From Clostridia bacterium (GTDB taxonomy: Bacteria; Bacillota; Clostridia; Christensenellales; Aristaeellaceae): a stretch of 12,865 nt of DNA. Positions 1-12,865 of the stretch are shown in pieces; the stretch's first letter is position 1; every line of letters starts with the position of its first letter. Where the stretch lies: assembly GCA_045599485.1 (NCBI GenBank), contig JAZRWA010000075.1, forward strand, positions 1-12,865, read 5' to 3'. Position numbers and translations under genes: made by a program. The notes beneath the pieces were generated by a model. The model made no database searches. It was not told where the DNA came from and saw only the letters and a program-made list of their open reading frames with translations.

Positions 1-125
1 TGAAGGGACTGGAAGCACACACCACCGTCATTCTCTCGCAGGTGGATGAGAACGTGTTCCGTCGTCTCGGTGTCAACCTGACCATGGACCCCAAGTATCA
101 GTCCCGCAAACTTTATCACAAATAA
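1..125 (+). CDS. 3' end of an unidentified protein-coding gene (partial, enters from the left edge)
   Basis: The frame starting at position 3 is open from the window edge (…KGLEAHTTVILSQVDENVFRRLGVNLTMDPKYQSRKLYHK) to TAA at 123-125. A hairpin terminator follows directly. I do not recognise the product from 40 residues. Confidence 0.45.
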   Translation, partial: KGLEAHTTVILSQVDENVFRRLGVNLTMDPKYQSRKLYHK

Positions 126-143
126 GCGTGCTGATTGCGCATT

Positions 144-172
144 AAAAAGGCAGGCTGTCCGGCCTGCCTTTT
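144..172. terminator. Bidirectional rho-independent terminator between convergent genes
   Basis: A 7-bp GC-rich stem, GGCAGGC (149-155) pairing with GCCTGCC (162-168), has a 6-nt loop. It is flanked by AAAAA (144-148) and TTTT (169-172), so it can serve both the + strand partial gene and pyrH on the - strand. Confidence 0.7.
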
Positions 173-192
173 CATTATTTAATTCTCTTGAT

Positions 193-894
193 TCAGGGAT
201 GCAGTACGGTGCCCCGGTCATCGCCGTTGATCACCGCCGTAATGCTTTCGGCCGAATCCAGTCCAAAGACGCGCACCGTAGGGATGTGCTGTTCATTCAG
301 CATTGCAAACGCCGCGGTATCCATCACCTTCAGACCGCGCGCCATAGCTTCGCCATAGCTGACGTCTCTCAAAAGCACCGCGGAAGCATCTTTTCTGGGA
401 TCTGCAGTATAGACGCCGTCGATGTTTTTGGCCAGCAGCAAGGCGTCCACCTTCATTTCGGCTGCACGCAGCACCACCGCCGTATCCGTGGTAAAGAAGG
501 GATTGCCCGAGCCGCCGGCAAACAACACCACCTTGCCGGATCTCATGGCTTCACGGGCCGTCTGTACATTATAGGGCTCACACACGCGCGGCATATCGAT
601 AGCAGAAAAGACAACGGCTTCCGCGCCGTTTCTCTCAATGGCATCACGCATACACAGGCAATTGATCACCGTGCCCAGCATGCCCATGTGGTCGGCAGTC
701 ACAGCATCCATCTCCTGGGACTGTCTTCCGCGCCAGATATTGCCCGCACCGATGACAATGCCAAGCTTTGTGCCGCTCTTGACGATATCCGCCAGCACCC
801 GGCCCACTTCCATAATTTTGTCCTGATCAAAGAGACGACCGTTTTCGCCCAGTGCCTCGCCGCTCAGCTTCAGCAGAATACTGTTGTATTTCAT
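193..894 (-). CDS. pyrH: UMP kinase (uridylate kinase)
   Basis: The 233-aa ORF MKYNSILLKLSGEALG…GAGNIWRG…FAGGSGNPFFTTDTAA… shows typical amino-acid-kinase-fold PyrH motifs. It sits in the conserved rpsB-tsf-pyrH order. A GAGGAG RBS lies upstream and the stop is TGA. Confidence 0.95.
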   Translation of the reverse strand: MKYNSILLKLSGEALGENGRLFDQDKIMEVGRVLADIVKSGTKLGIVIGAGNIWRGRQSQEMDAVTADHMGMLGTVINCLCMRDAIERNGAEAVVFSAIDMPRVCEPYNVQTAREAMRSGKVVLFAGGSGNPFFTTDTAVVLRAAEMKVDALLLAKNIDGVYTADPRKDASAVLLRDVSYGEAMARGLKVMDTAAFAMLNEQHIPTVRVFGLDSAESITAVINGDDRGTVLHP

Positions 895-904
895 CTTTCG
901 CTCC

Positions 905-937
905 TCAAAAAAGGACGGACATTTGATTGTCCGTCCT
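905..937 (-). terminator. Hairpin plus U-run between tsf and pyrH (terminator or partial attenuator)
   Basis: On the minus strand, the stem AGGACGGACA (928-937 rc) pairs with TGTCCGTCCT (912-921 rc) across a 6-nt loop. TTTTTT (906-911 rc) follows, just before the pyrH RBS. Confidence 0.6.
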
Positions 938-950
938 GTATATTAAGCAA

Positions 951-1619
951 TTACTTCTTGCCGGTCATCTCGGCGATTTCGGCAGCCAGATCGCTCTGCT
1001 TCTTCTCGATGCCTTCGCCCAGCTTGAAGCGGACAAAGCGGCGGATGGTCACCTTTTCACCGGTCTTCAGGGTGGTCTCGTTCAGCAGATCCTTGATGGT
1101 GATGTCAGGATTCTTCACGAACTGCTGATCCATCAGGCAAACTTCCTTGCAGTACTTGTCCACACGGCCTTCAACGATCTTGTCGATGATGGCAGCGGGC
1201 TTCTTGGCGTTCTTCTCGTCGTTCATGACCTGCTCATGGGCGATCTTGCGCTCGTCTTCCAGCTTGGCAGCGGGAATCTCGTCCTTGGTCACGTACTCGG
1301 GAGCAGCAGCGGCGATGTGCATCGCCACATCATGGCACAGGGCCTTGAAGGCATCGGTGCCGGCCACAAAGTCGGTTTCGCAGTTGATCTCAACCAGCAC
1401 GCCGATCTTGCCGCCCATGTGAATGTAGGACTCAACAGCGCCTTCAGCAGCGACGCGGCCGCTCTTCTTGTTGGCAGCAGCCAGTCCCTTTTCACGCAGA
1501 TATTCAACGGCCTTTTCCATATCGCCATCGCTGGCAACCAGGGCCTTTTTGCAATCCATCATACCGGCCTGAGTGCGCTCGCGCAGCTCTTTTACCAGTG
1601 CCGCAGTAACTTCAGCCAT
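951..1619 (-). CDS. tsf: Translation elongation factor Ts (short form, 222 aa)
   Basis: The N-terminal UBA-like signature [28 protein letters not shown] is diagnostic of EF-Ts. The gene lies directly downstream of rpsB, has a GGAGGA RBS and stops at TAA. Confidence 0.95.
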
Positions 1620-1654
1620 TTTTTTATTCCTCCGGTCTGTATTTTAGATAGAAA

Positions 1655-2374
1655 TTATTCGGCGTCCTTAGCGGCTTCTTCGCCGTCCTGCACGCCCTGC
1701 TTGCCTTCCAGGATGGCATCGGCCATCTTGCCGGCAATCAGCTTCACGGCACGGATGGCATCATCGTTGCCGGGAATGACGTAATCGATCTCATCGGGAT
1801 CGCAGTTGGTATCAACAATGCCAACGATCGGAATGCCCAGAGCACGTGCTTCGGCCACGGCGATGTGCTCCTTGCGGGGGTCAACCACAAACAGGGCGCC
1901 GGGCAGATTCTTCATTTCGCGGATACCGCCCAGGTTGGCGATCAGCTTTTCACGCTCGTGGATCAGCTTGATGACTTCCTTCTTGGGCAGCACATCAAAC
2001 TGGCCGTTCTGCTCCATACGATCGATGGAGTTCAGACGCTCGATACGGGTCTTGATGGTCTTGAAGTTGGTGAGCATGCCGCCCAGCCAGCGGTTGTTGA
2101 CATAGTACATGTTGCAGCGCTTGGCTTCGCTCTCGATGCTCTCCTGGGCCTGCTTCTTGGTGCCGACAAACAGCATAGTCTTGCCTTCCAGAGACAGGTT
2201 GCGGTCGAACATGTAGGCTTCGTCGATCTTGCGGACAGTCTTCTGCAGGTCGATGATGTAGATGCCGTTGCGCTCAGTAAAGATGTACTGGGCCATCTTG
2301 GGGTTCCAGCGGCGGGTCTGATGACCGAAGTGCACGCCGGCTTCGAGCAGGTGCTTCATGGAAATGACGCTCAT
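1655..2374 (-). CDS. rpsB: 30S ribosomal protein S2
   Basis: [27 protein letters not shown]… is the canonical S2 N-terminus. I place the start at the ATG at 2374, which is preceded by AAGGAGGAAG. The track ORF start at 2440 adds 22 non-conserved residues and has no RBS. The stop is TAA. Confidence 0.95.
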
Positions 2375-2472
2375 GGTTTCTTCCTCCTTGTTTTTCCACC
2401 GCGGAGACGTAAATTTTGCTGCCACCCTGTACGGGCACAAGCGGCTTGTCTTCCGCGTGCGTTATCTGTGGT

Positions 2473-2501
2473 ATTGTATCACATCAAGGTGCACTTTGCA
2501 A
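2473..2501 (-). promoter_or_regulatory. Candidate sigma-A promoter for rpsB-tsf
   Basis: On the minus strand, TTGCAA (2496-2501) is followed by a 17-nt spacer and TGaTACAAT, an extended -10 with its hexamer at 2473-2478. This leaves a leader of about 90 nt before the rpsB RBS. This is a motif match only. Confidence 0.45.
2480..2490 (+). repeat. Left copy of the 11-bp direct repeat CACATCAAGGT that brackets the TAG-interrupted locus
   Basis: An exact 11-mer recurs in the same orientation at 7453-7463. AATATT plus a T-run follows both copies, directly on the right and after 9 extra nt on the left. Confidence 0.5.
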
Positions 2502-2632
2502 TATTTTTTTGTTTCTTTCTCAACTGAATTACCAAAAAACTTTTGCTCAATTGCTTTATCGGATTGCGTCGTAATTGGATGCTTCATACCGTTATCCCCC
2601 TCCGTTCTGTATTCCAAACATTTTACAGTTTT

Positions 2633-2662
2633 TTGACTATTGTTCTGTTATCATGTTATAAT
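2633..2662 (+). promoter_or_regulatory. Near-consensus sigma-A promoter for the 2697 gene
   Basis: TTGACT (2633-2638) is followed by an 18-nt spacer and TGtTATAAT, with the extended -10 TG at 2654-2655 and TATAAT at 2657-2662. A GAGGAGG RBS follows at 2679-2685, 11 nt before the ATG at 2697. Confidence 0.6.
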
Positions 2663-2696
2663 ATTACACATTCCATTCGAGGAGGCCCATACATAA

Positions 2697-3203
2697 ATGC
2701 TTAAAAAGTATGTTTCATTGCTGATGGCGTTCATCTTCCTGACCACGGTTCTGCCGCTGTCTGTTGGTATGCCTGTGGCCAAGGCCAAGAGTTTGGATGA
2801 GGAATTGACAGACTACGCATTGATGGCATTTCAGGAGATTTCAGCGACTTTTGGAAAAACAAATCCCGATGATGTAGCTTTCCGCAGGCTGATGAAACGT
2901 TTGTATTCGGATAAGAATCAGACCGGTGAAGCCAATATGCAGGATCATCCGATCTGGAATACCATCGTCGAATGGGTCACGAATATGACAGATTACCGTG
3001 GCTTTTTGGGGATCAATCCGGAGCAGCAATATGCTGAGATCCTGCTGTATACGGAGCTGTTGCAGGACATGCTGAAGGCAGGCAACGAAAGTTTTGAAGG
3101 CGCCGTGAAGCTTGCTGAAAATGAAACCAAAGTGGGGGGCAAGTGGAAAGCAACGATCGGTGCAGTGTGGAATAGTGTATCCGCATATTCCTCCACAACC
3201 TAG
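2697..3203 (+). CDS. Segment 1 of the TAG-interrupted frame: a 168-aa secreted protein under standard decoding
   Basis: This is the only segment with a real translation start (promoter, GAGGAGG RBS, ATG). It has a Sec signal peptide, MLKKYVSLLMAFIFLTTVLPLSVGMPVAKA|KS, with an AxA cleavage site. It ends at TAG 3201. Confidence 0.85.
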   Translation: MLKKYVSLLMAFIFLTTVLPLSVGMPVAKAKSLDEELTDYALMAFQEISATFGKTNPDDVAFRRLMKRLYSDKNQTGEANMQDHPIWNTIVEWVTNMTDYRGFLGINPEQQYAEILLYTELLQDMLKAGNESFEGAVKLAENETKVGGKWKATIGAVWNSVSAYSSTT

Positions 3204-6200
3204 CTGATTCGTAGCTCCCTCTTAAGGCGCATTCTAACCAGCCCCGACATGCTCATCAACGTTCAAGACGTAGGCAGTCTGTTCGGTCATGGCAATCCGG
3301 GTGTCGGTGATTATCTGAAGGGAACCGGATATTTTCAGTACACGGTCTCGTCTATTGATCTGCTGGAGAAAATCAGTGAATCTGCAGAAGACGAAAGCCT
3401 GCGTCTGGCTTGCGATGCAATGTTGTATGTATATAAAAACTGGCGGTCAGAAGTGCTGAAGGATAAGGATATATTCAGCGGCAGGTATGCAGACGATCGG
3501 GTGTATCAGGAAGAAATGGACGAATATGTCCGTACAGAATTGAATCACTATCTCAAGAAAAAATACGGAAAATAGAATGAAAAGGATATGTGGAATTGGG
3601 TAGAGACAAGCCAGCCAGCAATCTCTATAATGCAAAGATCGGGCGCAGGTTTGAGTAACGTAACCTTTAACATGAAAGGTATCTTTGTCAGCTTTGAAAA
3701 GATGCGCTGCACCGAAAATATTGCACAGGCTATGACCGGTATATTGGCCGATCAGATGAACGCATCCGGCAAAACATGGCGCGACTACATGTCCTGGGTA
3801 AACCTGTATATGCAATACCTCAAGCTGTGCCTGATTGGCGAATCCGCGCTGCATGAGCTGGTAACCGTGAATTCATGGATTCCGGTCGATTTCCTGTTCA
3901 AAAAAGGCGACACGGCCGACTTTGAAGCTTGGTATACGCAGGATAAGAATCTGCTTGAAATGTTTTATACAGATTCGCAGTACTATCTCCAATATGTGCT
4001 GGAGAAATATTACGTAATGATCAGTATGACGGATGATTTTGAAGCGTTGCTGGAACGGGAAGACCTGCATCAACGAACGATCCGAGGCGTGGTGCTGCAA
4101 GACGAATTCTACGCAGATCCGGATGATACGACCAAGCCGGGCCTGAACGCCGCCAACGAGTACGCCGGGGAACCAGCAGTCGGCGTTTCCGTAAGACTGG
4201 TAGGCAAAAATGACGATCGCGAATATGCCGCCACGGTGACCGGTGAGGACGGCAGCTATGAGCTGACTTATGTTGAGGAAGCGGCTGTCGGTGAACCACT
4301 GAAACTGGTGATCGCCGAGAATTGCGAATACGGTCTGTTTGCAGAAAACGAGACGGACGTGTGGCGGGATGTAGAGCTGGAATTCCGCAGCGAATGGAAT
4401 TCGCAGGCAACAAGGACTACCAACTTTTCCACCGAAACCAATCTGTCCTGGACATTTGATTACTGCGATCAGCTCTTCCTGCAGCCGGAGGATCAATACA
4501 ATCATGATCTGGCACGCTTGTCACTGGGCATGGCGGTAGCAGGCTATTCTGCGCCTGAGGCAGACCGCTACTGGAATTCTGATGGCGATATGGGCCGCGA
4601 AAGCAATATCCGTGCAGCCTATGAAAAGCTTGGCTTTATCGATTCGCCTTATCCAACCAGATTCGTCCATTATGATAAAAATTTGAACGACGACAGTTCC
4701 AAGGTGGCTTTCTCCATTGCCGCAAAGGATATTTTCAATCCCGAAATATCTATCAAAGAGGACGAGGCGCAAAAGGAGCACCTCGTGGTGGTGGTCCTTC
4801 GCGGCGGCGGCTACGGATGCGAATGGTCCAACAATTTCTATGTGAAGCAAGCTGATGTGCAGAACTATCATGCCGGCTTCTATTTTGCAGCCAGTGAGGT
4901 GGCAAAATAGGTGGAGGAATATATCAGCTCCACATTTGATGACGGACGCCCCGTTCGCCTGTGGATGACAGGCTACAGCCGTTCTGCAGCCACCTGCACA
5001 CTGGCAGCTGAATTGCTGGATGCCATGACGAACAAGCCATATGAGCATCTGTATGCATACACCTTTGCAGCACCCGCAGGCACACAGCAGCCTAAGGCAA
5101 TCAAAGGCCTGTATAACATCATTTATGGTGAGGATCTTGTGCCGCGCGTAGCACTTGAAGCATGGGGCTTTGGTCGAAATGGAACCAGCCTGTTCTTTAC
5201 AACCAACTCCACAAAGCTGAAAGAAGAAGATGCTTCAAAAATTCAGAATATTTTCCAAAAGATCACCCGTTATTCCGGTGCAGGCTACAACCCGCTGGAT
5301 TATACGGCAGAGAGTGACCTGATCACATAGATCGTGGGATTGCTACAAAAATCAGCGCCGGATGTGGATACCTATGCTGAAAAAATGCAGCCTGCTTTGG
5401 TGGCGATCGCGAAAATGTACTTCTCAAAGCGCCACGAGCCGGATGGTCGCAACACGACGGATTTTGATTATATCGATGAAATGATGACCGGCGTGATCGA
5501 GGAGCAGAATCCCAACTACCGTGCCCAAGTAACAGAAGCTGAGAATCTTCTGAAGTAGTGGGTCAACCAGACAAACGCCATCAAGTCGCTCACGCAGATC
5601 ATCAGCGGGCTGGCTCCGCGCACAGCGGGTGCTTTGCCCTTCACTCTGCTCATAACTCTGGGTAGCAAACTGGTGGAGTGGGAACAATCAGGTGAACAAT
5701 TTTTATGGAATCTGCTGCACAAGGCAGAAGACTTCGTTTCCGCCTTGTGCCATATTGAAAACTACGGAAACATCGTGCGAGAGAAGTCCCAGTTGAAGTC
5801 GTCTGCCGATTCAAGCAATATGAGTTCAGCTGAAACGAATGAGTATCTGACCATGATAAAGATACTCGGCTTTTTGATTGCCAATGCGTCCGGCGTCGCG
5901 CAGCGCGCAATCGGCGGCACAGGTACGACCGGCATCATGATGGGTCACAGACCCGAGGTATACCTTTCCTGGCTGTATGCACTCAGCGGCGAAGAACTGT
6001 TCGGGCGCGAGGATGCAATGTCTGTCGACCTGCGTGTACGCCCGATCAAGCGACACTTCACCGGTGTCGTGCTGGCAGAATATGCGAAGGGTGATTACGG
6101 TCGCATAACAGCATATCTCCTGGATAACAGCATGCATTTACGCCTTGATAACGATGGCAACCTGATTACAGTGGAACGTTTTGATTGGACGGGCTATTAC

Positions 6201-7196
6201 TCCCCCTGGAACTGGTATCTGCGAATGATCCTGCTCGATGACAGGTATCTGTACTCTGAATACCGCGTGGTGGATGGCGCTGACTTCCTCTATTACGAAA
6301 TACAGTATCAACTCTACGATCTGTTGGGCAATGTACCTCTCCTCTTCTCGGCCAAAACCGATGAAAACGGTATACTTGTCCTGACCGACAATAAGTTTGA
6401 AACACACATGGCACCGGTTGAGATCGGCAAGGTTGGATCCACTCTTAACGTAGAGCTAATGACTTAGACACTCAATAGCATGTTTGGTCGCTACGGCCTG
6501 GATTTCCAGCTTCAAACGACTGCCAGTCCATCCTACTATGTAAACCACGTAGAAAAGACCCATTACGCAGATATCCCCATCGGCGTCATCAAGGATAACA
6601 GCCGTGACAGGATGATCTTTGATATCGACACCACCGATTAGAGGAACTTCAGTTACACGGATTTTCTGGCTTATGAAGAAGTGATGGAAAAGTACTATCG
6701 TCCCAGGAAGATCGTTACCGAAAGCGATCCAGCGGCTCTGGTATAGAAGGTGTTGGAAAGCACCGGCGCAAACTTCACGCTCAACTCCTCCAGCGAATAC
6801 AACGGCACGATCACCGAAACCTACAATGACGAAAATGGAGTGCAGCTGAAGTTCAGTATTGACAAGGCCTCCGGCCGAATCATCAAGATCGTACTGGACG
6901 ATTCCGCCCTATGCAACAGCGACTGGAGAAACCGTTCAATGGCGATTAAAAACTATACCATGGAGCTTTATGACCGTATGATGCAAATAACCGAACTGGG
7001 GCTGGATGAAGCACTAAGTTTGGAGCTGCGTTCAATCGATTTTGAGAGCGCAAAGGTAAAAAAGAACGCGTTCGACCTGAATGAGCGTACGCTGTCCTAT
7101 GAAACACAGGGAATACAGGTGACAATGTCCAAGGAGACCATGCTTCCGAGTGAAAACATCCTGAGCCTGCTCACGATCACTTTCCCCGCTCCCTGA
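2697..7196 (+). CDS. Single 1,499-codon reading frame with 8 in-frame TAG codons, encoding a secreted class-3-lipase-like protein. It is either translated with TAG read-through/reassignment or is a TAG-only pseudogene.
   Basis: ORFs 2697, 3249, 3588, 4911, 5334, 5634 and 6750 all start at coordinates divisible by 3. I read every gap codon by codon. The only interruptions are TAG at 3201, 3573, 4908, 5328, 5556, 6465, 6639 and 6744 (codons 169, 293, 738, 878, 954, 1257, 1315, 1350). The frame ends at TGA 7194-7196. No other + strand frame in this span yields an ORF in the track. The lipase-like domain spans the TAG at 4908. Confidence 0.65.
3249..3575 (+). CDS. Segment 2 of the TAG-interrupted frame (track ORF, 108 aa)
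   Basis: It is in frame with segment 1, and the 15 codons from 3204 to 3248 are also open. No Shine-Dalgarno sequence precedes ATG 3249. The confidence refers to this interval being coding in this frame, not to it being an independent gene. Confidence 0.55.
   Translation: MLINVQDVGSLFGHGNPGVGDYLKGTGYFQYTVSSIDLLEKISESAEDESLRLACDAMLYVYKNWRSEVLKDKDIFSGRYADDRVYQEEMDEYVRTELNHYLKKKYGK
3588..4910 (+). CDS. Segment 3 of the TAG-interrupted frame (440 aa): beta-sandwich-like region plus the N-terminal half of the lipase_3-like domain
   Basis: It is in frame, with only 4 sense codons after TAG 3573. IRGVVLQDE…GVSVRLVGKNDDREYAATVTGEDGSYELTYV resembles carboxypeptidase-regulatory/Cna-B-type beta-sandwich repeats. 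HLVVVVLRGGG and HAGFYFAASEVAK match the lipase_3 'vvaFRGT' and 'vHkGF…' blocks. The segment ends at TAG 4908. Confidence 0.7.
   Translation: MWNWVETSQPAISIMQRSGAGLSNVTFNMKGIFVSFEKMRCTENIAQAMTGILADQMNASGKTWRDYMSWVNLYMQYLKLCLIGESALHELVTVNSWIPVDFLFKKGDTADFEAWYTQDKNLLEMFYTDSQYYLQYVLEKYYVMISMTDDFEALLEREDLHQRTIRGVVLQDEFYADPDDTTKPGLNAANEYAGEPAVGVSVRLVGKNDDREYAATVTGEDGSYELTYVEEAAVGEPLKLVIAENCEYGLFAENETDVWRDVELEFRSEWNSQATRTTNFSTETNLSWTFDYCDQLFLQPEDQYNHDLARLSLGMAVAGYSAPEADRYWNSDGDMGRESNIRAAYEKLGFIDSPYPTRFVHYDKNLNDDSSKVAFSIAAKDIFNPEISIKEDEAQKEHLVVVVLRGGGYGCEWSNNFYVKQADVQNYHAGFYFAASEVAK
4911..5330 (+). CDS. Segment 4 of the TAG-interrupted frame (139 aa): nucleophile-elbow half of the lipase_3-like domain
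   Basis: It begins at the codon immediately after TAG 4908. VRLWMTGYSRSAATCTLAAELL resembles 'i.vTGHSLGGAlA.l.a', with the Ser codon at 4977-4979. YAYTFAAPAG resembles 'ytFG.PrvG', and IIYGEDLVPRV resembles 'rvv…D.VPrlP', with the Asp codon at 5133-5135. A GAGGTGG lies 8 nt upstream of GTG 4911, so reinitiation is conceivable. Confidence 0.7.
   Translation: MEEYISSTFDDGRPVRLWMTGYSRSAATCTLAAELLDAMTNKPYEHLYAYTFAAPAGTQQPKAIKGLYNIIYGEDLVPRVALEAWGFGRNGTSLFFTTNSTKLKEEDASKIQNIFQKITRYSGAGYNPLDYTAESDLIT
5334..5558 (+). CDS. Segment 5 of the TAG-interrupted frame (74 aa)
   Basis: It is in frame, with one sense codon (ATC) after TAG 5328, and no RBS. It ends at TAG 5556. Confidence 0.5.
   Translation: MGLLQKSAPDVDTYAEKMQPALVAIAKMYFSKRHEPDGRNTTDFDYIDEMMTGVIEEQNPNYRAQVTEAENLLK
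5634..6467 (+). CDS. Segment 6 of the TAG-interrupted frame (track ORF 277 aa; open from 5559)
   Basis: It is in frame, and the 25 codons from 5559 to 5633 are open. The track start is a TTG with no RBS. It contains MMGHRPEVYLSWLY, a possible lipase 'H…Y' catalytic-His block with the His codon at 5946-5948. It ends at TAG 6465. Confidence 0.6.
   Translation: MPFTLLITLGSKLVEWEQSGEQFLWNLLHKAEDFVSALCHIENYGNIVREKSQLKSSADSSNMSSAETNEYLTMIKILGFLIANASGVAQRAIGGTGTTGIMMGHRPEVYLSWLYALSGEELFGREDAMSVDLRVRPIKRHFTGVVLAEYAKGDYGRITAYLLDNSMHLRLDNDGNLITVERFDWTGYYSPWNWYLRMILLDDRYLYSEYRVVDGADFLYYEIQYQLYDLLGNVPLLFSAKTDENGILVLTDNKFETHMAPVEIGKVGSTLNVELMT
6750..7196 (+). CDS. Segment 9 of the TAG-interrupted frame (148 aa), the C-terminal region ending at the real TGA stop
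   Basis: It is in frame. The preceding 6468-6749 is also open except for TAG 6639 and TAG 6744, giving segments 7 and 8 of 57 and 34 codons. There is no convincing RBS before GTG 6750. Confidence 0.55.
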   Translation: MLESTGANFTLNSSSEYNGTITETYNDENGVQLKFSIDKASGRIIKIVLDDSALCNSDWRNRSMAIKNYTMELYDRMMQITELGLDEALSLELRSIDFESAKVKKNAFDLNERTLSYETQGIQVTMSKETMLPSENILSLLTITFPAP

Positions 7197-7334
7197 TTAC
7201 AATGCTGCTGTCTTTATTGCTCTTTCCGGTCAACTCACCCGCAAATGGGCCAATATATCCCTTCAAAATTAAATGCTCCATTGTTTGATCTTCCTCCATT
7301 TACTTCCAGAGATAATACTGTATTGTTTTCTTAT

Positions 7335-7368
7335 ACTGTGCCGGTGACTCATATTTCGACTGTGCCGG
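7335..7368 (+). repeat. 10-bp direct repeat ACTGTGCCGG x2 in an AT-rich spacer
   Basis: The copies lie at 7335-7344 and 7359-7368, 24 bp start to start, inside a stretch of about 310 nt (7197-7510) with no convincing ORF. Confidence 0.5.
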
Positions 7369-7452
7369 ATTGTTTATCAACAATGTCTTCAACGCCTTGG
7401 ATTGCATAACCAGCATATTAGCTCGTCACCATGTCACGCGATTTTATCCTCA

Positions 7453-7463
7453 CACATCAAGGT
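7453..7463 (+). repeat. Right copy of the 11-bp direct repeat CACATCAAGGT
   Basis: It is an exact match to 2480-2490 in the same orientation. Confidence 0.5.
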
Positions 7464-7510
7464 AATATTCGTTTTCAAACAAGAAAACAAGAGAAATACA
7501 GTACATACTA

Positions 7511-7539
7511 TTGACAACTGTATAAATAAGGTCTATGCT
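7511..7539 (+). promoter_or_regulatory. Candidate sigma-A promoter of the trp operon
   Basis: TTGACA (7511-7516) is followed by a 17-nt spacer and TATGCT (7534-7539), directly upstream of the T-box leader. Confidence 0.6.
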
Positions 7540-7545
7540 TTCATC

Positions 7546-7834
7546 AGATAAACCGTTGAAGCGGAAGTAAAGGTGATTGTTGCTCCTACAGAGAACCTGC
7601 GGTGGTGGAATGCAGGCGGAAAGCAGGTCATCACAATGGACCGCTGAGGGTGCGGTGAAAGACTGGCATCAGTCGATTATCCCGCGACGCGCAGGACTGC
7701 GTCAGTGTCCGGAGGTATGTTTGTACCTTGCCAAGTGTGCAGCAAGCGCTGCAAACCAGGGTGGCACCGCGGATCTGTTGTTGATTCGTCCCTGGTAAGG
7801 TTCATTATCGAGCCTTACCGGGGACTTTTTGTTT
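7546..7834 (+). promoter_or_regulatory. T-box riboswitch leader, tRNA-Trp specific (UGG specifier)
   Basis: A conserved T-box sequence, AAACCAGGGTGGCACCGCGG, lies at 7753-7772. A stem-I AGAGA element lies at about 7590. The stem-I base AGCGG (7560-7564) pairs with CCGCT (7641-7645), with UGG-A (7637-7640) immediately 5' of the closing helix, the position expected for a specifier codon plus purine. A terminator follows, and then trp biosynthesis genes. Confidence 0.85.
7790..7834 (+). terminator. T-box terminator hairpin
   Basis: CCCTGGTAAGG (7790-7800) pairs with CCTTACCGGGG (7813-7823), giving 11 bp including one G-U pair. ACTTTTTGTTT follows. It lies 10 nt upstream of the trpE RBS. Confidence 0.8.
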
Positions 7835-7856
7835 ATCAAGTGCAGGAGGAATGACA

Positions 7857-9317
7857 ATGCAGCTGTATCCGAGTCTTGAAACTGCGAATCGATACGCCAA
7901 GGAAGGCTATCGCATGATGCCCCTGTGTACTGAACTGCTCAGCGATGTGCGTACCCCGATGCAGGTACTGCGTGCGCTGAAAAATGTATCCAGCCATGTC
8001 TATCTGCTGGAATCCGTCGCCGGTCATGAACAGTGGGGCCGCTACACCTTCCTGGGCTATGAGCCCACCATGGAGATCACCTGTATGAACGGCACGCTGC
8101 GCATGGGCAGCCTGACCCTCGAGACCCGTGACCCCAATCATTATATCCGTCAGATCCTGGCCGATCACCACAGCCCCAGGATCGAAGGGCTGCCAAGCTT
8201 CACCGGCGGTCTGGTCGGTTATTTCAGCTATGATTATCTGAAATATGCCGAGCCTACCCTCCGTCTGGACGCAGAGGACAGCGAGCATTTTCAGGACATG
8301 GATCTGATGCTGTTTGACAAGGTGATCTGCTTTGATCACTACAAACAAAAGATCATCCTGATGGTCAATATTGCTCTGGATAAGCTGGAAACAGAATATA
8401 ACCGGGCCGCCATGGTATTGAGCCAGATGGCCGAACTGGTGATGAACGGCGCACTCAAGCAGGAAAAGCCCGGCCGTCTCAAAAGTGCCATCCGTCCCCT
8501 GTTTACGCAGGAAGCCTTCTGCAGCATGGTGGAAAAGGCCCAATATCACATCCATGAAGGAGACATTTTCCAGATTGTGCTGAGCAACCGCCTCGAAGCC
8601 GATTATGAAGGCAGTCTGCTCAATGCCTACCGCATCATGCGAACGAAGAATCCCTCACCATATATGTTCTATTTCAGCGGCACGGATGTCGAGGTCGCTG
8701 GCGCTTCGCCCGAAACACTGGTGAAGCTGGAAAACGGTGTACTGCACACCTTCCCGCTGGCAGGTACCCGTCCGCGCGGCAAGACGCCGGAAGAAGACAA
8801 GGCGCTCGAAGAAGATCTTCTGGCTGACCCCAAGGAACTGGCCGAGCACAACATGCTGGTGGATCTGGGCCGCAACGACATCGGCAAGATCAGTCGTTTC
8901 GGTACAGTGGAAGTGGAAAAATACCACTGTATTGAGCGTTTCTCCCACGTCATGCACATCGGCAGCACGGTGCGCGGCGATATCCGTGAGGATTGTGACG
9001 CACTGGATGCGGTGGATGCGATCCTGCCAGCCGGCACATTGTCGGGTGCGCCAAAGATCCGTGCCTGCCAACTGATCAACGACCTGGAAAACAACAAGCG
9101 CGGCATCTACGGCGGCGCGATCGGTTATCTGGACTTTACGGGAAACCTGGATACCTGCATTGCCATCCGCATCGCCTACAAAAAGAACAGCAAGGTGTTT
9201 GTCCGCTCCGGTGCCGGCATCGTGGCGGACTCGGTACCCGAAAAAGAATATACCGAATGCACCAACAAAGCCGCCGCAGTCATCAAATCGCTGGAAGAAG
9301 CGCAGGAGGTGGAATAA
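7857..9317 (+). CDS. trpE: Anthranilate synthase component I
   Basis: The sequence has a TrpE/chorismate-binding family signature throughout (…LESV…GRYTFLG…, …PSPYMFYF…, …GAIGYLDFTGNLDTCIAIR…). AGGAGG at 7844-7849 favours ATG 7857 (7-nt spacing) over the track start at 7851 (1-nt spacing). The stop is TAA. Confidence 0.93.
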   Translation: MQLYPSLETANRYAKEGYRMMPLCTELLSDVRTPMQVLRALKNVSSHVYLLESVAGHEQWGRYTFLGYEPTMEITCMNGTLRMGSLTLETRDPNHYIRQILADHHSPRIEGLPSFTGGLVGYFSYDYLKYAEPTLRLDAEDSEHFQDMDLMLFDKVICFDHYKQKIILMVNIALDKLETEYNRAAMVLSQMAELVMNGALKQEKPGRLKSAIRPLFTQEAFCSMVEKAQYHIHEGDIFQIVLSNRLEADYEGSLLNAYRIMRTKNPSPYMFYFSGTDVEVAGASPETLVKLENGVLHTFPLAGTRPRGKTPEEDKALEEDLLADPKELAEHNMLVDLGRNDIGKISRFGTVEVEKYHCIERFSHVMHIGSTVRGDIREDCDALDAVDAILPAGTLSGAPKIRACQLINDLENNKRGIYGGAIGYLDFTGNLDTCIAIRIAYKKNSKVFVRSGAGIVADSVPEKEYTECTNKAAAVIKSLEEAQEVE

Positions 9318-9320
9318 GCC

Positions 9321-9917
9321 ATGATCGTCCTGATCGATAATTATGACAGTTTCTCCTATAACCTGTATCAGCTCATCGGCTCGATCGAGCCGGAGATCCG
9401 GGTGATCCGCAACGACGCCCTGACGGTGGAAGAAATCGCCGCGCTCCGCCCCGACGCGGTCATCCTTTCCCCCGGCCCCGGTCATCCCGAAGACGCCGGC
9501 ATCTGCGTGGAGGCCGCCCACACGCTCGGACAGACGATCCCTCTGTTCGGCGTATGCCTGGGGCATCAGGCGATCTGCACCGCCTGGGGCGCAACCGTTT
9601 CCTACGCAAAGGAACTGATGCACGGCAAGCAGAGTATGACGGCCTTCGATCCCGACTGCGAGCTTTTCAAAGGTCTACCGTCCCATGCGCCCGTCGCCCG
9701 CTACCACTCGCTTGCAGCCATCGAAAGCACCTTGCCACAATGTCTCAAGGTCACCGCCCGCACCGAGGATGGGGAGATCATGGCCGTCCGGCACACCCTC
9801 TATCCCATCTTCGGCGTGCAGTTCCACCCCGAATCCATCATGACACCGGACGGAAAAGCCATTCTGAGCAATTTTGTTCAATACGCCAAATCAATGAAGG
9901 ACAAACAGAGCCATTGA
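9321..9917 (+). CDS. trpG: Anthranilate synthase component II (glutamine amidotransferase, TrpG/PabA type)
   Basis: MIVLIDNYDSFSYNLYQL…, the GVCLGHQ catalytic-Cys motif and FGVQFHPES are class-I GATase hallmarks. The gene starts 3 nt after the trpE stop and has an AGGAGGTGG RBS. The stop is TGA. Confidence 0.95.
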   Translation: MIVLIDNYDSFSYNLYQLIGSIEPEIRVIRNDALTVEEIAALRPDAVILSPGPGHPEDAGICVEAAHTLGQTIPLFGVCLGHQAICTAWGATVSYAKELMHGKQSMTAFDPDCELFKGLPSHAPVARYHSLAAIESTLPQCLKVTARTEDGEIMAVRHTLYPIFGVQFHPESIMTPDGKAILSNFVQYAKSMKDKQSH

Positions 9918-9932
9918 CAGGAGGAAAAAGAG

Positions 9933-10958
9933 ATGATCCGCGAAGCCATTATCAAGCTGACCGAAAAAGGGGACCTGAGCTACGATGAAGCCTATGCCGT
10001 GATGAATGAGATCATGAACGGTGACACGACCCCGACACAGAATGCCGCCTTCCTGGCCGCGCTATCCACCAAGAGTACAAGAGCGGAAACCATTGAGGAG
10101 ATCTCCGGCTGCGCGTCGGCCATGCGCGCCCACGCCCTGTCCGTGGATGTAGGTGACATGGAAGTGCTGGAGATCGTGGGAACCGGCGGTGACGGCGCTC
10201 ACAGCTTCAACATTTCCACCACCTCCGCCATGGTGATCGCGGCCGGCGGTGTCAAGGTCGCAAAGCACGGCAACCGTGCTGCCTCCTCCAAATCCGGCAC
10301 GGCCGACTGTTTGGAAGCACTGGGTGTCAACATCAGTCTGACCCCCGAGCAGTGTGTGGCTCTGCTGGAAAAGGCAGGCTTCTGCTTCTTCTTTGCACAG
10401 AAGTATCATGCATCCATGAAGTATGTCGGAGCGATCCGCAAAGAGCTGGGATTCCGTACGGTATTCAATATTCTGGGACCGCTCACCAACCCCGCCCGTC
10501 CGCAGATGCAGTTGCTGGGCGTTTATGACGAATATTTGCTGGAACCGCTTGCGCAGGTTCTTTGCTCCCTCGGCGTTCAGCGCGGCATGGTCGTCTACGG
10601 CATGGATAAGCTGGACGAGATCTCCATGAGTGCGCCGACCAAGGTCTGTGAGTTCAGGGATGGATGGTACAAAACCTACACCATCACACCCGAAGACTTC
10701 GGCTTTGCCCGCTGCGACAAGAGTCAGCTGGTTGGCGGCACGCCCGAAGAGAACGCACAGATCACCCGCGATATACTGTCCGGCAAAGAGCAGGGACCGA
10801 AGCGCAGCACCGTGCTGATGAACGCTGGCGCCGCTCTGTACATTGCAGATAAGGCCGATACGCTGGCAGCAGGTGTCAAACTGGCGGCCGAACTGATCGA
10901 CAGCGGCAAGGCCCTTGCCACCCTGGAAGAAGTCATCAAATGCTCCAATGAGGTGTAA
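9933..10958 (+). CDS. trpD: Anthranilate phosphoribosyltransferase
   Basis: GTGGDG…FNISTT…[12 protein letters not shown](T)AD motifs are present. The protein is 341 aa, has an AGGAGG RBS and stops at TAA. Confidence 0.95.
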
Positions 10959-10959
10959 G

Positions 10960-11751
10960 ATGGCAACGATACTCGACACCATTGCCGATCATGCGCGTTT
11001 TCGTGTGCAGCAGGATGCCGCTCTCATTCCGCAGGAGGTCATGAAAGACCGTGCCTTGGCTATGGGAAAGGGAAGCGGTGACACCTTCCTGCAGGCACTG
11101 CGCCAGTCCGGCATGCGTTTTATCTGTGAGGTGAAGAAGGCCTCACCAAGCAAGGGAGTTATCGCAGAAGACTTCCCTTATATAGACATTGCCAGAGACT
11201 ATGAGGCAGCCGGAGCCGACGCAATCTCCTGCCTGACCGAACCGAAATGGTTCATGGGATCAGACAGCATCTTCACAGACATTCGCGTACAGGTAGCAAC
11301 GCCCATGCTGCGCAAGGATTTTACGGTGGATGACTACCAGATCTACCAGGCACGGGTGATGGGGGCCAATGCAGTACTGCTGATTTGTGCCCTGCACGAT
11401 ACGGCACAGATCGCGCGCTGGCTGCAGCTATGCGATGATCTTGGTCTGGCAGCTTTGGTCGAGACGCATGACGAGAAAGAAATCGAATCCGCCGTGAGTG
11501 CCGGGGCACAAATCATCGGCGTCAACAATCGCAATTTAAAGGATTTCTCAGTGGACTTTTCCAATGCAGCGCGCCTACGCGACCGTATCCCGACCAACGC
11601 AGTCTATGTGGCAGAAAGCGGTGTGAAGGGACCGGATGATGCCGCGGTGCTCCGAAAGATCGGCGCTGATGCCGCACTGATTGGTGAAGCCTTAATGAGG
11701 GCAGACAATAAGGCTTCCATGCTGGCGGCCATGAGGGAGGCAGCACAATGA
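10960..11751 (+). CDS. trpC: Indole-3-glycerol-phosphate synthase
   Basis: ILDTI…FICEVKKASPSKGVI…LTEPKWF.GS…LRKDF…NNRNL… are typical IGPS motifs. I prefer the start at ATG 10960, which has a GAGGTG RBS and lies just after the trpD stop. The track start at 10915 would overlap trpD by 44 nt. The stop is TGA. Confidence 0.92.
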   Translation: MATILDTIADHARFRVQQDAALIPQEVMKDRALAMGKGSGDTFLQALRQSGMRFICEVKKASPSKGVIAEDFPYIDIARDYEAAGADAISCLTEPKWFMGSDSIFTDIRVQVATPMLRKDFTVDDYQIYQARVMGANAVLLICALHDTAQIARWLQLCDDLGLAALVETHDEKEIESAVSAGAQIIGVNNRNLKDFSVDFSNAARLRDRIPTNAVYVAESGVKGPDDAAVLRKIGADAALIGEALMRADNKASMLAAMREAAQ

Positions 11752-12356
11752 GCAGCACCAAGATCAAGCTGTGCGGCATGCGCCGAATGCAGGACATTGC
11801 CGCAGTCAATGACCTGAAGCCGGATTTTATCGGTTTTATCTTCTGGGCCCCAAGCCACCGATATGTAACGCCGACGGAAGCCATGCAGATGAAAACAGCG
11901 CTCGATCCGTCGATCAAGGCCGTTGGCGTGTTTGTGGATGCGCCGGTCGATCTGGTGGCGAAGCTGCTGAATGATGACGTGATTGATATGGCACAGCTTC
12001 ACGGGCACGAGGACAATGTATATATTGAGCAGCTGCGGCAGTGTTCCGTCAAGCCCGTCATTCAGGCATTCAAGGTGAAAACTCCGGCTGACCTCGACCG
12101 GGCGGCCTGCTCTACGGCAGATCATCTGCTGCTGGACAGCGGTACCGGCAGCGGCGAAGCTTTCGACTGGTCATTGGTCAAGGATTTCCACAAGCCTTTC
12201 TTCCTGGCTGGCGGTCTGCATCCCGATAATGTGCAAGCTGCCATGCATCAGGTGCAGCCCTGGGCTGTTGATGTGTCCAGCGGCATCGAGACAGACAAAT
12301 TCAAGGATATCGAGAAAGTGCGGGCCTTTGTGAACAATGTCCGCAATGCAAAGTGA
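11748..12356 (+). CDS. trpF: N-(5'-phosphoribosyl)anthranilate isomerase
   Basis: KIKLCGM…D…GFIF…S.R.V… and LLDSG.GSG..FDW match the PRAI family. An ATGA overlap with the trpC stop suggests translational coupling. The stop is TGA. Confidence 0.92.
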
Positions 12357-12370
12357 AAGGGGTGATCGGT

Positions 12371-12865
12371 ATGCCGAAGTCCAAGGGACGCTTTGGCATC
12401 CATGGTGGTCAGTACATTCCCGAGACGCTGATGAACGCCGTCATCGAGTTGGAAGAGGCCTACAATTTTTACAAGAATGATCCCGCATTCAACGCGGAAC
12501 TGGCAGAGCTGTTCAATGAGTATGCAGGCCGACCCAGTCGCCTGTATTATGCGGAGAAGATGACAAAAGATTTGGCCGGCGCCAAGATTTATCTCAAGCG
12601 CGAGGATCTCAATCACACCGGCGCCCACAAAATCAACAATGTGCTGGGGCAGGCACTGCTGGCCAAAAAGATGGGAAAGACGCGTCTGATCGCCGAGACC
12701 GGCGCCGGTCAGCACGGTGTTGCCACAGCCACCGCCGCTGCCCTGATGGGCATGGAGTGCGTCGTGTTCATGGGAGAAGAGGACACCAAGCGTCAGGCAT
12801 TGAATGTATATAAAATGCGTCTTCTTGGCGCCACGGTGATCCCCGTGACCAACGGCACCGCCACC
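12371..12865 (+). CDS. trpB: Tryptophan synthase beta chain (5' partial, runs off the window)
   Basis: [24 protein letters not shown]…[15 protein letters not shown] (PLP-lysine motif) …[27 protein letters not shown] lies upstream. The frame is open to the window end (165 codons). It is absent from the ORF track only because it has no stop in the window. Confidence 0.93.

Follow-up and report, generated by a model that had tools for sequence, protein, structure and literature searches.

What does a TAG codon do within a bacterial gene that looks intact in all other respects? The question is raised by a DNA stretch of 12,865 nucleotides (nt) from a Clostridia bacterium of the Aristaeellaceae (GenBank assembly GCA_045599485.1, contig JAZRWA010000075.1, positions 1 to 12,865 of the forward strand), referred to here in its full length as the window. 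A large gene lying between rpsB and the trp operon, and predicted to encode a secreted lipase-like protein, carries eight TAGs in frame. The original prediction, made from the sequence and a list of its open reading frames (ORFs), was that the TAG at 4908 cuts a lipase domain in two, and that the TAG-separated ORFs encode one polypeptide. The analysis confirms the observation and supports this interpretation: at 4908, TAG stands as a sense codon within a single lipase-type domain, which belongs to a protein of 1,499 amino acids (aa). The explanation towards which the evidence leans is that this is an island gene, stemming from a mobile background in which TAG is sense and decoded in trans.

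A reading frame interrupted by TAG only

On the plus strand, frame 3 is open from the ATG at 2697 to the TGA at 7194 over 1,499 codons, and is broken solely by TAGs, found at 3201-3203 (codon 169), 3573-3575 (codon 293), 4908-4910 (codon 738), 5328-5330 (codon 878), 5556-5558 (codon 954), 6465-6467 (codon 1257), 6639-6641 (codon 1315) and 6744-6746 (codon 1350). Read with the standard code, the product would end after 168 aa. Before the terminal TGA, neither TAA nor TGA occurs in frame, vs. 70 and 82 such triplets in the other two frames of the same 4.5 kilobases (kb). TAGs are found at similar rates in frame (8) and out of frame (9 and 4); selection has therefore excluded TAA and TGA, not TAG, from this frame. 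Random nonsense mutations, 48% of which would be TAG given the codons of the gene, would yield eight TAGs out of eight with a probability of about 0.003. The value drops to 4e-7 when the related genes described below are taken into account, all of the at least 20 in-frame stops being TAG. No common nucleotide context, PYLIS-like or other, surrounds 25 TAGs of the window gene and its relatives, and no Rfam match falls inside the gene. As the TAGs share no context, their decoding is likely to be general and tRNA-based rather than signal-dependent.

The coding sequence (2697-7196, plus strand), recognized from the TAG-only frame, the orthologue, the substitution pattern and the uninterrupted homologues, thus comprises 1,499 codons, eight of which are TAG sense codons, plus TGA. 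The N-terminus of the product, MLKKYVSLLMAFIFLTTVLPLSVGMPVAKA|KS (2697-2786, plus strand), resembles a signal peptide when the translation is read by eye, and homologues feature N-termini of the same kind.

A lipase-type domain spans codon 738

When the read-through protein is compared with the Pfam Lipase_3 profile (PF01764), one match is obtained, at aa 698-820 (4788-5156, plus strand), which covers profile positions 1-137 out of 140 and scores 37.7 bits (cut-off 22, E 2.4e-9). The match is a single stretch running across codon 738, as predicted for a domain cut by this TAG. Analyzed separately, the part preceding the TAG finds no match, and the part following it scores 25.4 bits. A DUF2974-type model, proposed along with Lipase_3, does not match the read-through protein at E values up to 1. 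A sequence search of the PDB gives weak alignments (E about 0.05) to the feruloyl esterase A (FaeA) of Aspergillus niger, which also cross the TAG. The only PHROG match of the protein is to a generic esterase/lipase family.

The fold was approached through an uninterrupted homologue 44% identical to the window protein (P0005). Its AlphaFold model has a predicted template modelling (pTM) score of 0.70 and a core predicted local distance difference test (pLDDT) score above 90. Foldseek places 6qpp, 1uwc and 6xok at the top (probability 1.0, TMt 0.42-0.54), the best PDB matches being Rhizomucor miehei lipase, A. niger FaeA and Thermomyces lipase. Codon 738 aligns with E331 of this homologue, located in helix 319-339, which is directly followed by strand 346-353 and by the nucleophile Ser354. 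The homologue model thus sets the TAG in the helix located between the HxGF block and the nucleophile elbow, where it had been positioned by eye. The peptides read on the two sides of the TAG (HLVVVVLRGGG...NYHAGFYFAASEVAK before, VEEYISSTFDDGRPVRLWMTGYSRSAATCTLAAELL...YAYTFAAPAG...IIYGEDLVPRV after) and the codons assigned to Ser761, Asp813 and His1084 are likewise correct.

Ser761 (AGC, 4977-4979, plus strand), the putative nucleophile in the sequence G-Y-S-R-S, is invariant in both alignments analyzed (A1 and A2), and Asp813 (GAT, 5133-5135, plus strand), the candidate triad acid, is invariant in A1. The block GHRPEVYLSWLY (5943-5978, plus strand), originally indicated as the best candidate to provide the histidine, corresponds to a nearly invariant motif of the family, H.PE.Y[LM].W, in which H, E, Y and W are each conserved in at least 90% of the members; the region has pLDDT values around 95 in the homologue model. 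Asp813 and His1084 (CAC, 5946-5948) would complete a Ser-Asp-His triad, for which they are candidates by conservation only. The triad was expected to need the reading of at least three TAGs. This holds true within the domain, but from the true start codon five TAGs have to be read (3201, 3573, 4908, 5328 and 5556). The elbow had been described as non-canonical, which is correct with respect to G-H-S-L-G, yet relative to the consensus of its own family, G-[FY]-S-R-G, it differs at the last, small residue only: G-Y-S-R-S is found in the window, in the orthologue L082 and in the paralogue L086, G-[FY]-S-R-[GA] in other members, the last residue of the window elbow being small, not Gly.

In class 3 lipases, such as those of R. 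miehei and Thermomyces lanuginosus and A. niger FaeA, the elements come in the same order as here, Ser elbow, Asp, His. The elbow is G-H-S-L-G in these enzymes, and Asp203 and His257 of the R. miehei lipase are about 55 residues apart, whereas in the window protein Asp813 and His1084 have a helical insertion of about 270 aa between them; in the P0005 model it appears as a helical module of approximately 190-270 residues. The domain, moreover, is embedded here in a secreted multidomain protein of 1,499 aa. The proposed order of the domains is putative signal peptide, helical N-terminal region, small beta-sandwich, alpha/beta-hydrolase with insertion, beta-rich C-terminus. The beta-sandwich (4167-4334, plus strand) is weakly similar to transthyretin and CarboxypepD_reg-like domains (TTR-52, E 0.015, below cut-off), and the N-terminal beta domain of the P0005 model also resembles transthyretin weakly. 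By sequence, conservation and, via the homologue, fold, the protein is assigned to the class 3 lipases, and an esterase/lipase activity is predicted for it.

Homologues, orthologue and purifying selection

Relatives were collected with HMMER, by searching exhaustively with the exact fragment of 444 aa that precedes the TAG; 341 sequences were retrieved. A word-index search using the complete read-through protein retrieved none. No copy of the gene was found among GTDB representatives, in which the best match to EF-Ts is 69% identical; the closest representatives by this protein are Christensenellales-like, with identities of 65-69%. Nine uninterrupted relatives, 892-1,672 aa long, have the same architecture (P0002, P0003, P0005-8, P0028, P0051 and P0083), which is complete in homologues of 1,311-1,672 aa. 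P0002 is 45% identical to the window protein, and P0003 is encoded by an Aristaeellaceae metagenome-assembled genome. All nine run uninterrupted through the column aligned to codon 738, which is occupied by E, R, T, E, S, D, A, P and so on, and homologues are therefore not split at this point.

A 91%-identical fragment (P0001) led to a contig, L082 (European Nucleotide Archive (ENA) ERZ27247129), which carries an orthologue 87.5% identical to the window gene at the nucleotide and 88% at the amino acid level. The orthologue ends in TAA; before this stop its frame is unshifted throughout, and contains TAG nine times but neither TAA nor TGA. The two genes have TAG in common at five codons, 293, 738, 954, 1315 and 1350. 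The three remaining TAGs of the window gene are replaced in L082 by CAG (codon 169) and GAG (codons 878 and 1257), four TAGs of L082 are replaced in the window by GAA, GAA, AAA and AAG, and 7 of the 12 TAG positions therefore differ between the orthologues. A second assembly, a Logan contig (L083, run ERR6929691) identical to L082 over 1.6 kb including two TAGs, may derive from the same sample.

The ratio of nonsynonymous to synonymous substitution rates (dN/dS) between the window gene and L082 is 0.13, at a dS of 0.45, and varies from 0.09 to 0.22 in the nine inter-TAG segments, the last included. None of the 91 columns invariant in five other homologues is changed in the window gene, and none in L082. 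The region 2697-7196 is one gene, encoding one polypeptide that is under purifying selection along its whole length. The unity of the TAG-separated ORFs, as originally proposed, is borne out both by this segment-by-segment constraint and by the conservation of the codon-738 TAG in the orthologue.

Additional TAG-bearing genes were found next to the orthologue and in the same ENA sample. A 59%-identical paralogue (L086, 1-3167) fills a whole contig of 3.2 kb, and has five in-frame TAGs and no TAA or TGA. Its TAG columns are all different from those of the window gene and L082, and TAGs seem to have been gained independently in each gene copy. Shortly downstream from the orthologue, at 8116-9291 of L082, lies a gene that ends in TGA and has in-frame TAGs at 8902, 9040 and 9268. 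Its product, about 390 aa long, is a multi-pass membrane protein; Pfam, PHROG and PADLOC gave no match for it, and IMG/VR no relative. A conserved operon including this membrane gene was considered and rejected, as the gene is unrelated to those surrounding the uninterrupted homologue P0002.

Internal TAG runs were found neither in 80 distant family members from metagenomes of the JGI nor at the P0002 locus, although the P0002 host uses TAG stops, which argues that the TAG-sense state is restricted to the clade formed by the window gene, L082 and L086. In the standard-code genome hosting P0002 (L084, 8190-9263, and L085, 3337-4410), three small ORFs of 51, 62 and 222 aa, without a Pfam match, lie ahead of the gene, and a gene for a secreted Pro/Thr-rich protein comes after it; these genes may form an operon, which is absent from the window.

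A strain-variable island

The gene is flanked on one side by pyrH, tsf and rpsB (193-2440, minus strand), and on the other by trpE, trpG, trpD, trpC, trpF and the start of trpB (plus strand, from 7851). Its GC content is 0.49, and 0.58 at third codon positions, vs. 0.55-0.59 and 0.61-0.77, respectively, in the neighbours. It is the only gene in a low-GC (0.45-0.50), strain-variable insertion extending from 2522 to 7546, between rpsB and the leader of the trp operon, as delimited by GC content, by the breakpoint in a close relative and by the block homologous to L082. The relative in question (L001, 96.6% identical, reached via tsf) matches the window up to 2521 only, and continues with an unrelated HIT-like gene. 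Exact look-ups with the 440-aa ORF fragment 3588-4910 and with the products of rpsB, trpG, trpF and trpE gave no contig, although a protein identical to that of pyrH (P0160) is on record. Homology to L082 is restricted to 2648-7207. In L082 the gene has as neighbours a flavin adenine dinucleotide (FAD) oxidoreductase, a ferredoxin and an M20 peptidase, and the GC content of the host genes is 0.60. A 91.5%-identical relative of the L082 host (L087) lacks the island at this site. The three comparisons indicate that the gene is a strain-variable insertion residing at different chromosomal sites. Searches for flanking repeats or att sites around the island revealed short, chance-level repeats only, and the rpsB-trpE synteny is not traceable in relatives.

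A sigma-70-type promoter-like site (2633-2662, plus strand), TTGACT and (TG)TATAAT separated by 18 nt, is located 35 nt upstream from the start codon. The site matches the consensus at 11 of 12 positions and has an extended -10 element, which is a match to the consensus only; its -10 half falls within the block conserved in L082. A Shine-Dalgarno sequence, GAGGAGG (2680-2686, plus strand), is found 10 nt before the ATG at 2697. Past the stop codon, the interval 7197-7546 is a low-GC region of about 350 nt with no convincing ORF and no similarity to L082, and may be a remnant edge of the insertion. At the end of L082, 9974-10285 is a partial ORF of the Fic family (Fic_N, E 1.3e-4; phrog_5978, E 2e-18; PADLOC SoFic, E 6.9e-6, a weak match). 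The L082 island may thus be a larger region, of the defence or mobile type, than the single gene found in the window.

Distribution of TAG and identity of the decoded residue

The core genes flanking the large gene in the window contain no TAG in 2,231 codons, vs. 8 in the 1,499 codons of the large gene itself (Fisher p 0.0007). The same contrast calculated relative to Glu codons, of which the core holds 156, gives p 0.0012. Low-GC accessory genes of L087 are likewise free of TAG over 1,272 codons, in which about 6 would be expected at the density of the island, and so are the host genes of L082 and L087. The absence of TAG from core genes argues that the TAG-rich island genes most likely arose in a background where TAG was sense and which was not that of the core chromosome. 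It could have been provided, for example, by a mobile element or a phage lineage with a recoded TAG. According to this model, the gene would be written in a code in which TAG is a sense codon, and all eight TAGs, the one at 4908 included, would be translated by a general amber-decoding tRNA with anticodon CUA, independently of local recoding signals. The small low-GC island, variably present among close strains and located at different chromosomal sites, would have its genes read in trans, by a suppressor tRNA supplied from another locus in the cell; translation in the present host is predicted.

The residue inserted at TAG is likely to be polar, of the Glu/Lys/Gln type. Where only one of the two close orthologues has TAG, the other has a codon for Glu at four sites, for Lys at two and for Gln at one, the change being always at the first codon position. 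The empirical likelihood of the residue is highest for Glu, followed by Lys (-7.8 log-likelihood units) and Gln (-19.6), the sample being a small one of 12 sites. A profile inference of the Codetta type, based on distant homologues, gave no signal, the columns being too variable.

Weighing the explanations

A number of observations speak against an origin of the gene in a TAG-sense mobile element. Neither integrase nor phage structural nor mobile-element genes flank it in the window. No tRNA was detected by ARAGORN in the window, L001, L082, L084 or L085, so that no decoder is seen. Relatives of the protein family or of the TAG-bearing neighbour were found in none of three scans of IMG/VR; PLSDB contains no relatives of the family, and INPHARED only three distant, unverified and uninterrupted matches. 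The alternation of TAG with Glu and Lys codons, though resting on 12 sites, hints at something unlike the Gln of code-15 phages. A further point comes from stop codon usage: none of 18 host-type genes (8 from the window, 1 from L001, 9 from L087) ends in TAG, whereas relatives use TAG for 17-20% of their stops (p about 0.02-0.035). With the stops of the TAG-bearing genes themselves added, the count is 0 out of 21, and p ranges overall from 0.01 to 0.035. The sample is small, and L087 may not belong to the lineage of the window host; the result is more easily reconciled with a host that has given up TAG as a stop than with one using the standard code. A suppressor that persists and acts in trans could account both for a core free of TAG and for gene ends free of TAG. 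A phage origin of the gene was considered and rejected on the outcome of the searches in these collections, IMG/VR and PLSDB having given no relatives and INPHARED only distant, unverified matches.

The same stop codon count is an argument for a different view, which we regard as doubtful yet deserving attention, namely that the bacterial lineage itself has reassigned UAG, or suppresses it stably, by means of a chromosomal tRNA(CUA), with release factor 1 (RF1) lost or weakened and TAG stops purged, the new sense codons being confined so far to fast-evolving accessory genes. The location of the gene among essential genes, its good host-type promoter and ribosome binding site, and the lack of viral relatives fit this view. 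So do the fast turnover of TAGs at variable polar columns, which a young reassignment would show, and the TAGs of L086, all at different columns, as would agree with recent gains made independently; a case of this kind would be overlooked by genome screens that rely on conserved domains. The TAG-free core, in which neither the 156 Glu codons nor the moderately expressed trp genes feature a TAG, the TAG-free accessory genes of L087, the foreign composition and strain variability of the TAG-bearing genes, and the failure of screens of 0.25-2.7 million assemblies to report a TAG-sense bacterium stand in contrast. Decoding as pyrrolysine, by pylTSBCD genes located elsewhere in the genome, with TAGs drifted to non-essential surface positions as in archaea using this residue, appears improbable. 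Lys codons alternate with TAG at 2 of 7 variable sites, TAG positions are tolerant and polar, and neutral TAG spread into many genes is documented for such archaea (Code 34), but the commonest alternative residue is Glu rather than Lys, no pyl genes are present in the window, no PYLIS-like context is shared, and the density of 8-9 TAGs per gene is very high.

The remaining explanations deny that the gene is normally translated as one chain in the present host. It might be a silent gene of a defence island in a standard-code host, translated only when a recoded phage brings in a suppressor tRNA. The variability and low GC content of the island, the Fic fragment of L082 with its weak SoFic match, the existence of TAG-recoded phages of gut Firmicutes, and the tight repression that many TAGs would impose make such a tripwire conceivable. 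We hold it to be unlikely, because the protein and all its homologues have secretion signals and look like extracellular enzymes, the protein itself has no PADLOC match, the uninterrupted homologues in standard-code genomes indicate that the function of the family needs no TAGs, and 0 TAG stops out of 18 is unexpected for a standard-code host. That the gene is dead, either a pseudogene riddled with nonsense codons or a freshly stranded, untranslated recoded fragment, would agree with the lack of a visible decoder, with the early stop under the standard code and with the absence of the gene from the closest relative, and a very recent loss of translation is compatible with the sequence. We give this little credence: stops are TAG without exception here and in the related genes, 4.5 kb contain no frameshift and no TAA or TGA, dN/dS is low everywhere, even after the last TAG, family-invariant columns are unchanged on either terminal branch, and five TAGs are conserved across a dS of 0.45. 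The pseudogene as such is rejected, on the grounds of selection and TAG exclusivity. Least credible of all is a split enzyme, made by termination and re-initiation and assembled from pieces. At 4896-4913 the TAG is directly followed by a GTG, which has a Shine-Dalgarno-like GAGGTG 9 nt upstream, before the TAG, an arrangement that looks like a restart site, but L082 has GATGTG in its place, and the arrangement is probably a coincidence. Most other TAGs lack an adjacent start codon, and all other family members are single chains. The split enzyme is excluded because the cut points move between orthologues, the signal peptide resides on the first piece only, and the cut would cross a core helix.

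Comparison with known recoding systems

Among known systems, an island gene of TAG-sense origin comes closest to the TAG-recoded (code 15) phages and prophages of gut bacteria that themselves use the standard code, such as crAss-like, Lak, Garnet and Topaz phages (Borges et al., bioRxiv 10.1101/2021.08.26.457843; Peters et al. PMC9523058). Many in-frame TAGs, the lack of TAA and TGA, a GC content lower than that of the host, a standard-looking chromosome, code-11 gene calls that are fragmented, a presumed suppressor tRNA(CUA) and the lack of a local signal are common to both. In contrast to these elements, no phage gene, integrase or tRNA is found here within 12.9 kb, a single non-phage gene being set between rpsB and the trp operon, and the family is absent from IMG/VR. 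TAG is Gln in the phages, whereas here it alternates mainly with Glu and Lys codons, and what the gene encodes is a secreted protein resembling an enzyme, unlike the late or lysis genes of phages.

Genome-wide reassignments in bacteria concern UGA, read as Trp (code 4) or Gly (code 25), and TAG is read as pyrrolysine in archaea with Code 34 (bioRxiv 10.1101/2024.09.30.615893). A stop codon used as sense under purifying selection is a common feature, and in the small sample available here TAG is so far unseen at gene ends (0 of 18-21), but TAG is limited to island genes and absent from core genes in the present case, unlike in the established ones. No genome-wide UAG-sense code has been reported for Bacteria in the screens mentioned above, and pyrrolysine is reported in bacteria for a few enzymes only. 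Conserved single in-frame stops with presumed read-through have been described in bacterial genes (Belinky et al. 2021, PMC7918605). TAGs common to orthologues, a dN/dS below 1 and the alternation of TAG and CAG are found in both settings, but those stops are single and short-lived, whereas 8-9 are found here per gene, they are TAG only, affect several genes, and five of them have been conserved over a dS of 0.45.

Flanking trp genes

A T-box leader (7547-7825; RF00230, 82.4 bits, E 3e-18) lies directly upstream from trpE, and ends in a strong terminator-like hairpin (7788-7825) followed by a T-run. Its score is below the Rfam gathering score of 93, and a default scan at the gathering threshold missed it. 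The trp operon is presumably regulated by the sensing of tRNA-Trp. The trpC ORF as listed begins at the TTG at 10915 and has 44 nt (10915-10958) in common with the end of trpD, and the real start of trpC is probably located farther downstream. The trpC/trpF (11748-11751) and trpE/trpG pairs are tightly coupled.

Implications

Standard gene callers shred TAG-bearing genes of this kind into 5-9 fragments in public protein collections, with the consequence that the annotation of a family of large, secreted, lipase-like proteins is wrong in this lineage. Amber recoding is known from phages and prophages and, as pyrrolysine, from a few enzymes and some archaea; a non-phage gene with TAG as sense, under purifying selection amid bacterial core genes, is not an established situation. 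A tentative extension, which we rate as possible only, is that a free-living, gut-type Clostridia lineage, or a non-viral chromosomal island system within it, reads UAG as sense, with Glu or Lys more probable than Gln, TAG stops purged, and TAG confined to fast-evolving secreted or membrane accessory proteins. If true, Bacteria would be seen for the first time to have a UAG-sense code other than in phages and pyrrolysine enzymes, one that screens scoring only conserved domain positions would miss. The alternation of TAG with Glu and Lys codons hints, here as well, that TAG is decoded as a residue different from the Gln of code 15.

The finding implies that a trans-acting amber decoder would persist in these cells. 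It may belong to a recoded element that resides in the cell and from which cargo has passed into the chromosome, or to a host lineage nearing a new code. Either option would bear on how stop codon reassignments start, as depicted in the 'ambiguous intermediate' and 'codon capture' models.

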